The notes under the pieces: generated by a model
The model's database searches: none
Told to the model about the DNA's origin: nothing
The model's input: the letters and a program-made list of their open reading frames with translations, nothing else
Shown here: positions 10,524 to 12,906 of the stretch, in pieces
Layout of the letters: each line of letters begins with the position of its first letter
How positions within the stretch are numbered: position 1 is the stretch's first letter
Assembly: GCA_965215885.1 (NCBI GenBank)
Contig: CBDCEW010000025.1
Location: 1 to 38,278, forward strand
DNA length: 38,278 nt
Source of the DNA: Candidatus Moanibacter sp.
Lineage (GTDB): Bacteria > Verrucomicrobiota > Verrucomicrobiia > Opitutales > UBA2987
Reading direction: 5' to 3'
Position numbers and translations under genes: made by a program

Positions 10524-10936
10524 AATTTGTCGGAACAATCGTCTAAAAACTCCTCATCATAGCTTCTCTCGCCATCGGTTTGGCCGGTCTTCTCCCGTCG
10601 GTTGAATCACGATATTCGGCGGTAGCTTTTGCGCAGGAAGACCTACACCTGCCATGTTCCCACTCAACGGGACGAAGGGCCCTCACTTCTTCGAAAATCT
10701 CCCGATTCCCGCTACGGATTCACAAATCGATGTAGTCCCGGCGTACCGGGAGATGGATTTCGACGCGATCCCGCATTTTTCACGGCGAAGGGGAGCGAAG
10801 ACGGACCCACCTTTCATCCCTCATCCTTCACCCTTCCGCCTTCTTCCTTCTCTTCCCCACTGCTTCATTGACACGTAGTGCCCGGACGCATCAGTCTCGC
10901 CGAGTAGGACTTGCGCAGATAATGCTCCAGGAATCT

Positions 10937-10942
10937 TATAGT
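10937..10942 (+). promoter_or_regulatory. -10 box (TATAGT) of the IS110 circle-junction promoter
   Basis: Immediately after the left CT core; 17 bp from the right-end -35 in the circular form. Confidence 0.8.
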
Positions 10943-10948
10943 AGCTCC

Positions 10949-11235
10949 AGGTTATTCATCCAAGGGGCCGAGTGGAGCCGCAGGAAAAACTCGGCGAGGC
11001 CCCTTTGTGAATAACTTGGCCGATCAGTGGTTGGCGATGGGTCAAAGAGTTTGTTTGGCTAAGGGTGAAAATATTCAAAGGCAGCCGTCCACTACGAACT
11101 TAGGAATCAGTCCGAAGAGGACTTCCGACAGAATTTCGAGTGGACGGCCTGCCTGGATGACCGAAAACGAACACTCAGTTTACATCCTCATAACAGGATC
11201 CAACTATAAGGACTTCGCCTGGACATCCAGTGCCT
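10949..11235 (+). ncRNA. IS110 bridge RNA (5' hairpin, target-binding loop, donor-binding loop); ends approximate
   Basis: Stems 10962-10969/10998-11005, 11084-11093/11139-11148 and 11153-11159/11224-11230. Internal-loop segments match the target (AGGAATC 11102-11108; TCCGACAG 11124-11131) and the donor junction (CTCAGTTT 11174-11181; ACTATAAG 11203-11210). Confidence 0.88.
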
Positions 11236-11273
11236 TTGAAAAAAGCAAAAAGACAAACTAAAGGAACAAAGGG

Positions 11274-12584
11274 ATGCAGAAAAGGGAAAAAACAAATCGA
11301 TATAGTGTGGTGATAGGAATTGATTGGGCGGATCAGAAAAACGATCTGTGGATCATAGAGAGCGAAACGGGAAAAGGGACCCATCGACAGGTGGCGCAGG
11401 ATGCGGTCAGCTTGCACGAATTTGCCGTAGAGATGAGAGAAAAGTATGCCAGCGTGGGCAAGCGCATGGCCATGGTGGTGGACCAGAAGCGAGGAGGGTT
11501 GATCAACTTTCTGATGGGCTTGGAGTTTGTCGATATCTATCCAGTGCATGCGGCCAGGGCGAAGGATTATCGCCGGGCGCTGTATCCATCAGGGGCCAAG
11601 AGCGACCCGGTCGATGCGCAAATACACGCGGAGTTTTTCCTCAAACATCCCGAGCTTTTTACCAAATGTTTCATACCTGACACGGCCCAAACACGGGAGC
11701 TGAACCTGTTGTGCGAGGACCGCCGTGGATTCGTCGATCAGGCTACCAGCCTCGAACAGCAGTTGGGCAGTTGTCTGAAGCAATATAACCCTTTGGTCTT
11801 GAAATTGTTCGATGATCTAGGCAGTGGCCTGTGCCTGCACTTTATATTGCGTTGGCCGACCCTCAAGAAGCTGCACAGAGCATCGGAGGGTGTCTTGCGA
11901 AAGTTCTTCTATAAGCACAACTGTCGCAGTGACGCCAAAATCCAGGAGCGTCTCGAATTGATCGGTAACGCACGAGCCTTGACCGAAGATGCAGCCATCA
12001 TTGAAGCATCCAGCAGAAAAGCACAGACGTTGGCCGGACAGCTTTTGACCCTGTGCCCGCAGATCAAAGCGTATGAGAAGCGTATCAGGGAGCTATTCAG
12101 AAGCCATCCCGATGCAGCCGTGTTCAGTGGCATTCCCGGAGCCGGCGAGGTCATGAGTCCCCGGTTGCTGTGCGCGTTCGGGACCGATCGTTCGCACTTC
12201 GAAACGGCCCAGAACATGACCCAGTGGAATGGATCCGCTCCGGTCACGATCAACAGCGGGCAGGACAAAAGAACCGGACAACCGAAACGAATGGTCAACT
12301 GGCGGTGGGCGGCTCCTACCTTCGTGCGGCAAAGTTTCGTTGAATTTGCCGAACATTCGATCCGAAACTGTGCCTGGGCAAAGGCCTTTTACCAGATCAA
12401 AAAAGAACAGGGCAAACCCCGCCAAACCATTCTTCGTGCCCTCGCTCTCAAGTGGACCCGCATTCTGTTTCGCTGTTGGCAAAATAGCGAACGCTACGAT
12501 GAGCAAAAGTATCTCCAATCGCTCCAACGCACCGGTTCACCGGTGTGGAAAAGACTTCAGCAAGCAAATGCCAACGCCTTGTAA
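11274..12584 (+). CDS. IS110 family transposase/recombinase (DEDD RuvC-like + Transposase_20 domain)
   Basis: VIGIDW, KSDPVDA, GIPGAG, GSAPVTINSG (catalytic Ser region), WAKAFY...ALALKWTRILF. Confidence 0.95.
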   Translation: MQKREKTNRYSVVIGIDWADQKNDLWIIESETGKGTHRQVAQDAVSLHEFAVEMREKYASVGKRMAMVVDQKRGGLINFLMGLEFVDIYPVHAARAKDYRRALYPSGAKSDPVDAQIHAEFFLKHPELFTKCFIPDTAQTRELNLLCEDRRGFVDQATSLEQQLGSCLKQYNPLVLKLFDDLGSGLCLHFILRWPTLKKLHRASEGVLRKFFYKHNCRSDAKIQERLELIGNARALTEDAAIIEASSRKAQTLAGQLLTLCPQIKAYEKRIRELFRSHPDAAVFSGIPGAGEVMSPRLLCAFGTDRSHFETAQNMTQWNGSAPVTINSGQDKRTGQPKRMVNWRWAAPTFVRQSFVEFAEHSIRNCAWAKAFYQIKKEQGKPRQTILRALALKWTRILFRCWQNSERYDEQKYLQSLQRTGSPVWKRLQQANANAL

Positions 12585-12615
12585 ACACAACATGAGAAAA
12601 AACTCAAAAAATCCC

Positions 12616-12621
12616 TTGACG
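12616..12621 (+). promoter_or_regulatory. -35 box (TTGACG) in the IS110 right end
   Basis: 15 nt upstream of the right CT core, giving a 17-bp spacer to TATAGT after circularisation. Confidence 0.8.
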
Positions 12622-12638
12622 GACTACCTCAGTTTTCT

Positions 12639-12728
12639 GTCGGACTTCGCTTTTCTAGACTTCCCTGAGGTACGGATTCTTAGGTGAGAGATTGAGATAC
12701 CGACGAAGATTGAGACCGACAGATTCCT
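12639..12728. repeat. Remainder of a small inverted-repeat element whose left arm was split by the IS110
   Basis: CCGACAGATTCCT (12716-12728) is the perfect reverse complement of the reconstructed AGGAAT-CT-GTCGG. Confidence 0.75.
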
Positions 12729-12906
12729 TCGAAGAAAATGAACCTGAGATTTGAGACAATTTGTAATACCTATTGCGTCCTTGGCTGAGATTCCTCCGAT
12801 ATAGAGTTGAGGCCCCTGCATTCATCGTGGAAAAATCGTTTAAAGCACATCGGCCGAGGAAAACTTCGACCACTCTCCCACAATTCTCAGATTCATTTTC
12901 TTATTG

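Follow-up and report, generated by a model that had tools for sequence, protein, structure and literature searches.

Positions 10935-12638 of a 38,278-nucleotide (nt) stretch of forward-strand DNA from Candidatus Moanibacter sp. (assembly GCA_965215885.1, contig CBDCEW010000025.1, positions 1 to 38,278; the whole stretch is referred to as the window) are best read as an intact insertion sequence of the IS110 group that carries a bridge RNA in its left end, with guides for its own target and for its own joined ends. The probability of this reading is put at roughly 0.9. As judged from sequence, every defining feature of IS621-type bridge-RNA systems that lends itself to testing in silico is present in the element. 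An IS110-group bridge-RNA element is of a known kind, and the known mechanism is left unchanged. What this element adds is a target repeat, one insertion in a donor-like site, a one-base retargeting between sister elements, and small departures from IS621 in the recombinase (Asp70) and in a T shared by target and donor at position 7.

A first-pass annotation, made from the letters of the same DNA alone, had proposed an IS621-type bridge-RNA architecture, and this proposal was borne out by the Pfam domains of the recombinase, the layout of the element, the covarying stems of the RNA, the guides, and the predicted protein fold. The CT core, the flanks, the element ends, the four guide strings, and the apical hairpins that it had listed were all found in their places when the sequence was checked (Table 1).

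Table 1. Features of the IS110-group element and its insertion site, in window coordinates.
Feature	Position	Strand	Basis
Whole IS110-group element, 1704 bp, CT core at both ends	10935..12638	+	sequence; 10 full-length genomic copies with the same ends
Left target flank (LT) CCAGGAAT	10927..10934	+	nAGGAAT at this place in 9 of 10 copies
Left-end start TATAGT, putative -10 box of split promoter	10937..10942	+	TTGACG 17 nt upstream once the ends are joined
Long 5′ hairpin of predicted RNA	10950..11016	+	predicted fold; also kept in the G006 sister element
Leader between 5′ hairpin and target-binding loop; small hairpin at 11017-11043	11017..11078	+	predicted fold
Target-binding stem-loop (TBL)	11079..11154	+	fold; covariation of outer stem and of apical hairpin
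Left target guide TTAGGAATC, same sense as LT plus first core base	11100..11108	+	sequence and copies
TBL apical hairpin AGTCC/GGACT	11109..11123	+	sequence
Right target guide TCCGACAG, including core complement	11124..11131	+	reverse complement of CT+GTCGGA, 8/8
TBL handshake AA, complementary to donor positions 6-7 (TT)	11132..11133	+	definition from PMC11208158; family test
Donor-binding stem-loop (DBL)	11155..11228	+	fold; covariation of inner parts
Left donor guide CTCAGTTTAC	11174..11183	+	9/10 to right end plus C
DBL apical hairpin ATCCT/AGGAT	11184..11199	+	sequence
Right donor guide ACTATAAG, including core complement	11203..11210	+	reverse complement of CT+TATAGT, 8/8
DBL handshake GA	11211..11212	+	pairs with target T7 only by G-T; own donor fits at least as well
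Recombinase gene, 436 aa; catalytic positions D17, D70, D111, D114, S328	11274..12584	+	Pfam, alignments, fold
Putative -35 box TTGACG of split promoter, right end	12616..12621	+	sequence; joined-end script; relatives
Left donor (LD) CTCAGTTTT, last 9 nt of right end	12628..12636	+	sequence check and copies
Right target flank (RT) GTCGGA	12639..12644	+	sequence check and genomic copies
Free target 13-mer, inverted partner of the occupied site; the two are the ends of one repeat unit	12716..12728	-	repeat search

Predicted bridge RNA and its guides

The left end of the element (10935-11273) comprises 339 nt of noncoding sequence and the right end (12585-12638) 54 nt, with the CT core lying at 10935-10936 and 12637-12638. 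CT was present at both junctions in all 10 full-length genomic copies, and free target sites carry a single CT. The minimum-energy fold of positions 11078-11240 consisted of exactly two stem-loops, 11079-11154 (TBL) and 11155-11228 (DBL), with a z-score of -5.95 and none of 200 shuffled sequences folding as well, in agreement with the two guide-bearing stem-loops that had been described beforehand. Folding of 10949-11273 added the 5′ hairpin (z-score of -5.4), which in the sister element of a related genome, G006 (see below), has one stem pair changed on both sides and others changed to G-U, as read by eye. With its start placed by inference near 10949 and its end at 11228, where the second stem finishes, the RNA is predicted to be ∼280 nt long; no intrinsic terminator was found after the donor loop. 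The left target guide matches the element's own target over 7 to 9 nt.

Relatives were collected by scanning one genome per species, which yielded 481 stretches encoding relatives, of which 79 loci were kept. Their hosts, by record title, include Verrucomicrobia, Planctomycetes, Acidobacteria, Proteobacteria (enterobacteria among them), cyanobacteria, and others, and their upstream regions align across the whole two-loop region. After identical duplicates and one locus cut at its start (L070) had been dropped, 63 distinct RNA segments remained. RNAalifold applied to a MAFFT alignment of these segments recovered the target loop only, the donor loop being lost to indels, and 16 of the 18 consensus pairs showed compensatory changes. 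A 41-pair structure was then supplied from the window's own fold. With this structure 73.4% of alignment cells were paired, compared with 28-46% when the partners were slid, although a structure derived from the window favors the window's register and leaves the outer stem of the donor loop poorly paired. The covariation score was 0.317, compared with 0.153 or less for slid partners, and 0/500 shuffles reached 0.317. The TBL stem was 79.4% paired, with 17 of its 19 pairs changed on both sides; within the DBL, the CGAA/UUCG helix was 96.8% paired and the apical hairpin 70.7%.

The ends of the related elements were called automatically by matching their donor guides. Both ends were called in 55 of the 63 relatives, giving 47 distinct target loops, and 8 of 63 remained without a call. 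Some calls made with two mismatches are probably wrong; these were kept in the comparison of guides with flanks and dropped from the promoter, leader, and handshake tests. When the two halves of each target loop were compared with the element's own flanks, the median longest exact matches were 7 and 7 nt, as against 3 and 3 nt with the flanks of other elements. Both target guides matched their own flanks over at least 6 nt in 27 of the 47 cases, and mismatched pairings did so in 0 of 1930. Taken with the finding that nine of the 10 genomic copies occupy the same target (see below), the guide matches are far beyond chance.

It could be supposed that the stem-loops are a mere leader or attenuator of the transposase gene whose resemblance to target and donor is fortuitous, as the structured region lies directly upstream of the open reading frame (ORF) and Rfam offers no match for it. 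Four guide segments of 7-9 nt, however, match in the right order and on the right strand, a level that no mismatched pairing attained, and among the relatives the stems covary whereas the guide loops vary freely, which leaves this explanation with next to no probability.

Joining the right and left ends by script brought the two boxes together as TTGACG-17-TATAGT. In 26 relatives whose ends had been called at one mismatch or less, a split promoter re-formed in silico in 24 (at least 4/6 in both boxes, spacer of 16-18), most commonly as TTGAC(G/A/T)-17-TATAGT. No promoter-like site was found upstream of the integrated copy. In the same 26 relatives the target loop begins 51-275 nt from the left end (median of 126 nt); the value for the element described here is 144 nt. 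The first-pass annotation had considered the RNA unusually long. A 144-nt leader and a predicted length of ∼280 nt agree with this as regards size, but the length is a trait of the family rather than of this element. A link between a long leader and a longer protein was considered and rejected, relatives with a similar query span having leaders of down to 51 nt.

Twenty public sequencing runs contain the stretch or part of it, all as contigs, and two of the runs are recorded as RNA. These two metatranscriptomes, which come from one study, yielded left-end contigs covering 10990-11223 (depth of 21.5) and 10929-11229 (depth of 13.7), both of which stop at most a few bases from 11228, where the donor stem-loop ends. 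The adjoining ORF contigs had depths of 5.9 and 4.3, so the left end was covered 3-4 times more deeply. Two DNA runs gave a single contig each over 10929/10935-12643. The RNA contigs are a weak hint of a discrete left-end RNA, because such libraries may contain DNA, contigs do not reveal RNA ends, and both runs belong to one study. No circle junction was seen in the contigs of the two RNA and two DNA runs, a result that is uninformative on circles as contigs drop rare forms. In one run (X1), a DNA contig joins the left end (10935) to a different flank, the last part of which is the other arm of the repeat hairpin (…GGACTTTGAATTC); either an off-register insertion in another population or a chimera of the assembly may account for it.

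Genomic copies, target repeat, and a sister element

The source genome (G000), a draft of 6.36 Mb, holds 10 full-length copies of the element, one partial copy at a contig end, and two fragments. Six of the 10 copies are identical, the window's sequence being the one that they share; three others differ by a single base in the 5′ leader (at 10967, 11050, and 11068), and one differs by 2 bases in the ORF. All 10 have the same ends and an open ORF. Nine of them lie in nAGGAAT-CT-GTCGG(A/T), the recurrence in one target that the first-pass annotation had proposed as a check, and the sequence to the left differs further out. As the left flanks differ beyond the 8-9 nt of the target, the copies represent separate insertions rather than duplications.

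The target 13-mer, AGGAATCTGTCGG, occurs unoccupied 256 times in G000 (130 forward and 126 reverse), compared with an expectation by chance of ∼0.2 (our own arithmetic) and no occurrence of the reversed control pattern. For 95 of the 254 free sites that are clear of contig ends, an inverted partner follows no more than 130 nt downstream, and in 69 of these cases the distance is 70-79 nt. The paired sites constitute 48 repeat units of ∼96 bp, 34 of which measure 94 nt between the outer ends of the 12-mers, and one such unit folds as a long hairpin. TAGGAAT-(14 nt)-ATTCCTA is the pattern of many single sites and makes a short hairpin whose loop has the CT core at its base. The 13-mer thus forms the inverted ends of a ∼96-bp palindromic repeat and also stands alone. 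In the window, the interrupted unit consists of 10927-10936 joined to 12639-12730, and all nine canonical insertions are at the stem-loop boundary of the palindromic repeat. A search for an autonomous parent of the repeat, in the form of inverted 12-mers 200-6000 bp apart, revealed no preferred distance and no larger element with the same ends. At 62 sites the right flank starts with T; many of these are preceded by CATTTTCTTC, which on the other strand resembles a ribosome-binding site followed by ATG.

Thirty related genomes were searched for the 13-mer and for the element. The 13-mer was found in numbers only in G006, an 8.3-Mb genome of the same family and another genus (591 free sites); two genomes have one each, and the other 27 have none. 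The element, too, was found only in G006 among the 30, with 26 protein matches at 75-80% identity, of which 19 extend over the full protein and are free of stops. The G006 sister element has 79-80% amino acid identity to the window's recombinase, and its left end aligns throughout with that of the window. Its left target guide is TTAGGAGGC, one base changed from TTAGGAATC.

This pair of elements provides a natural test of specificity. In G006 the free 13-mers comprise 591 of the AGGAAT form and 237 of the AGGAGT form, and in G000 the corresponding numbers are 256 and 7. Of 23 left junctions of the sister element, 20 read TAGGAGT-CT, two TAGGAGG-CT, and one TAGGAGC-CT, with A at the sixth position in none. 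The sister element has accordingly used only the variant that matches its guide, although the other variant is 2.5 times commoner in that genome. If there were no discrimination, the occurrence of 20 of 20 insertions in the rarer variant would have P ∼4e-11 (our own arithmetic, the sites being taken as independent). A one-base change in the guide accompanied by a one-base change in the target supports a specificity that would be set by the RNA at single-base resolution. At the G006 junctions, position 7, next to the core, was T, G, or C, where the guide has a G. Since it varies and is mismatched at most of the sites used, this target base seems not to be read; in every one of the 10 copies of the window's element, the left donor guide likewise disagrees with the right end at the position next to the core. 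It is possible, though we hold it doubtful, that the sister pair amounts to a natural record of bridge-RNA specificity and its evolution in the wild.

The tenth copy in G000 (L009, contig C84) sits outside any repeat, at CTCAGTTTA-CT-TATGGG. Its fit to the left donor guide is 10/10 nt and to the right donor guide 6/8 (CT+TATGGG vs CT+TATAGT); the site is without a match to the target guides and includes an 11-mer, CTCAGTTTACT, that occurs only twice in G000. The copy interrupts a gene. A 98% identical, 698-amino acid homologue (P0121) runs uninterrupted through the site (…KFPDTSVY-LWGAEH…), and its codons there are those predicted by the left flank, CT, and the right flank. Relatives of the interrupted protein are annotated as S-adenosylmethionine-dependent methyltransferases or as spermidine-synthase-like, some with PF01564; Pfam gave no match on either half of the interrupted gene, and an orthologue was not found in five related genomes. 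Relative to P0121, the gene has a second frameshift, ∼25 nt downstream of the right junction in a TC run. A reading in which the two halves are out of frame across the insertion was rejected, as the homologue puts the site in frame and the frameshift is separate.

Insertion of IS621 at sites that match the donor arms only ("half-match" sites) has been reported, and 47% of the reads from non-target insertions with reprogrammed RNAs are attributed to such sites (10.64898/2026.08.31.748434). L009 resembles those events in that its site fits the donor guides and not the target guides, and, as one event interpreted by analogy, it looks like a fixed natural half-match insertion. The IS621 events come from cell-free assays and re-analyzed editing data, whereas L009 would be a fixed natural event of a distant orthologue with a gene interrupted. 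It would illustrate a cost to the host, namely that the donor loop can also choose sites, here with an interrupted gene as the outcome.

An alternative is that the protein reads the shape or sequence of the repeat and that the RNA loops match merely from long residence within it. Such a reading would suit the position of all nine canonical insertions at the stem-loop boundary, and for ISPpu10 a target stem-loop has been reported to add specificity (10.64898/2026.03.19.712850). It does not fit the tenth copy, which is not in a repeat and whose site agrees with the donor loop; nor does it fit G006, where 23 of 23 insertions used the guide-matching variant in the face of the commoner one, or the 47 relatives with unrelated targets, whose loops track their own flanks. 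Reading by protein instead of RNA is therefore quite unlikely, and target structure may have a supporting role beside the RNA guides.

Lesser remnants of the element in G000 are the partial copy cut by a contig end (L011, G000:C84:1-491), a lone 193-nt fragment that repeats the central part of the recombinase gene base for base (L012, G000:C99, locus 1519-1711), and an orphan fragment on the minus strand (L013, G000:C6:7714-7785) with 77% identity over 88 nt to the element start. The similarity of L013 covers CT, a TATAAGT box, and the 5′ hairpin and then stops, and a protein search found no related recombinase gene on its contig.

Recombinase, handshake bases, and mobility

The recombinase contains PF01548 (DEDD_Tnp_IS110) at residues 14-173 (E value of 1.2e-17, 64.5 bits against a cutoff of 29) and PF02371 (Transposase_20) at residues 283-374 (E value of 2.3e-09, 38 bits against a cutoff of 21.3). 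Its length of 436 residues, given by the first-pass annotation on the basis of the same ORF, was confirmed; the suggestion that this length is unusual was not, since it is shared with the best 120 of the 1585 proteins that match the recombinase at E values up to 1e-5, which are mostly of 418-450 residues.

In an alignment of 21 relatives, Asp17, Asp111, Asp114, and Ser328 are invariant, and the column of the second acidic residue contains Glu in 17 sequences and Asp in four. The four Asp proteins are this recombinase and its three closest relatives. The residue, Asp70 by recount of the translation, lies within MVVDQ, as had been noticed from the letters alone. Its equivalence to Glu60 of IS621 was drawn from the family column and the spacing rather than from a residue-level structural alignment. 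IS621 requires Asp11, Glu60, Asp102, Asp105, and Ser241 (PMC11208158); the spacing of the catalytic residues here resembles that of IS621, and Ser328 aligns with the IS621 catalytic serine in the phmmer alignment. Against Protein Data Bank (PDB) sequences, phmmer aligned only the C-terminal half of the protein to IS621 and ISCro4, and the N-terminal domain was therefore placed by Pfam and by the predicted fold.

An AlphaFold model built on the 21-sequence alignment had a predicted local distance difference test (pLDDT) value of 88 and a predicted template modeling (pTM) score of 0.82. Its best match in the PDB was IS621 (8wt9_A; Foldseek E value of 7.8e-13, Z of 20.5, root mean square deviation of 7.4, 312/319 residues aligned), and ISCro4 (9t56_D) matched at Z of 20.3. 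The next structural matches were TIGR-Tas and Nop5-type proteins, a likeness expected from the literature on this fold. In the model, the ∼100 residues that are extra relative to IS621 appear to be mainly short helices at 174-232 and a C-terminal extension. A 7-residue insertion at residues 329-335 (12258-12278), just after the catalytic Ser-Gly, falls in a low-confidence loop of the model. This insertion is common to this element, P0002, and P0004 and is lacking in the 16 remaining full-length relatives; P0005 is incomplete just before the insertion site.

In IS621, each loop has two bases just past the core complement that, once strands have been exchanged, pair with positions 6-7 of the other DNA, and handshake pairing of a loop with its own DNA inhibits the reaction and lowers recombination (PMC11208158). 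In 18 distinct relatives with clean ends, the first TBL handshake base pairs with donor position 7 in 18/18 and with the element's own target in one, this one being the element of the window; the first DBL handshake base pairs with target position 7 in 17 of the same 18, G-T pairs being counted. A T at position 7 in both target and donor means that the handshake bases cannot discriminate between the two in this element. The handshake pattern is, as far as the sequence indicates, the one feature that departs from the rules of IS621. If this lack of discrimination holds, the long-form clade, with its Asp70, extra helices, and 130-nt leader, would carry out strand exchange under somewhat different rules than IS621.

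Several observations weigh against the interpretation of 10935-12638 as an intact bridge-RNA element. Asp70 stands where IS621 has an essential Glu; the left donor guide has a mismatch (A against T) adjoining the core in all 10 copies; T is found at position 7 of both target and donor; and the DBL handshake GA fits the element's own donor no worse than the target. The outer stem of the DBL is only 28-47% paired in the alignment of relatives, which may be due to indels or an alignment fault there. An Rfam scan of 10600-12900 at E values up to 1 gave no match, the existence of a bridge-RNA model in Rfam 15 not being confirmed. The RNA support consists of assembled contigs from one study with possible DNA content, and one of the RNA-library contigs begins at 10929, upstream of the predicted RNA start. 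Finally, the source genome is a draft assembly in 105 contigs, and its contamination is estimated at 5.5%.

On the strength of the replaced Glu, the pairing of the DBL handshake bases with their own donor, and the guide mismatch beside the core, the element might be a real IS110 sequence with a bridge RNA that is nonetheless immobile, its copies being recent fossils or duplicated and its Asp70 and handshake peculiarities disabling. This is improbable given that six of the 10 copies are identical and all 10 ORFs are open, that the left flanks differ past the 8-9-nt target and so indicate separate insertions, that the Asp variant is also present in the G006 sister element, with its 19 whole-protein matches (residues 1-436) without stops plus partial ones, and that one copy lies within a gene whose 98% identical homologue is uninterrupted. 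The first-pass annotation had called the element probably active and reprogrammable, and both parts of this statement have gained support, the first of them indirectly. The 10 near-identical copies suggest that the element is probably active, and the natural one-base switch of guide and target in the G006 sister supports the notion that it would be reprogrammable.

Proposed mechanism and comparison with known systems

By analogy with IS621, the element would leave the chromosome as a circle in which the right and left ends, joined at the shared CT, would create a sigma-70-type promoter with its -35 box in the right end and its -10 box in the left. This junction promoter would drive the ∼280-nt noncoding bridge RNA from the left end. 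The recombinase would bind this RNA and would act through a RuvC-like domain (Asp17, Asp70, Asp111, and Asp114) and a Tnp domain (Ser328). One internal loop of the RNA would pair with both strands of the target AGGAAT-CT-GTCGGA and the other with the joined ends CTCAGTTTT-CT-TATAGT, after which the circle would be inserted by strand exchange at the CT core.

The element shares with IS621 (PMC11208160, PMC11208158) the CT core, the long left and short right ends, and the promoter split over the joined ends; the order of 5′ stem-loop, target loop, and donor loop; left guides in top-strand sense and right guides as reverse complements, with handshake dinucleotides after the core complement; a recombinase with RuvC-like and Tnp domains and a catalytic Ser; and insertion in repeated palindromic sequences. 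It differs in its low sequence identity (∼17-19%), in the length of the protein (436 residues as against 326-328), in having Asp70 in place of Glu60, in the ∼130-144-nt leader before the target loop, and in the T7 common to target and donor. The bridge RNA of Escherichia coli IS621 is 177 nt long, and bridge RNAs have been predicted in 85.7% of catalogued IS110 elements (PMC11208160). ISCro4 (IS622) has the same fold and the same two-loop RNA logic but is distant in sequence (phmmer E value of 8.8e-05, confined to the C-terminal half).

Homing of IS110 elements to repeated palindromes is known for IS621, ISPpu9, and ISPpu10 (10.64898/2026.03.19.712850). Like the element described here, ISPpu9 and ISPpu10 of Pseudomonas putida have their insertions all in one repeated, stem-loop-forming intergenic sequence, according to the same source; host and repeat family differ, and here the 13-mer makes up both inverted ends of a ∼96-bp unit. 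IS1111 elements resemble it as RNA-guided DEDD elements that home to the inverted ends of another repeated element, but their guide RNA is encoded in the right end, not in the left end as here, and their subterminal repeats are longer (PMC11208160).

With four readable guides, 10 copies at located sites, hundreds of free targets, and a sister element, the system is a compact test case. Bridge recombinases are under development as programmable DNA-insertion tools, so documented natural orthologues of this kind are useful starting material.

Two further observations concern the relatives. In a Bryobacterales metagenome-assembled genome (L090), the two-loop RNA segment occurs twice within a 4.2-kb locus, at positions 1285 and 3016, 1.7 kb apart, which suggests two adjacent or tandem copies of that relative. 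The enterobacterial relatives (L033-L060 and others, from Kluyvera, Rahnella, Citrobacter, Pantoea, and an Enterobacter plasmid; ∼38% identity) combine short leaders with guide loops that are nearly identical; their core is not CT-like, and their junctions suggest TTGAGC-GA-AGCGG targets.

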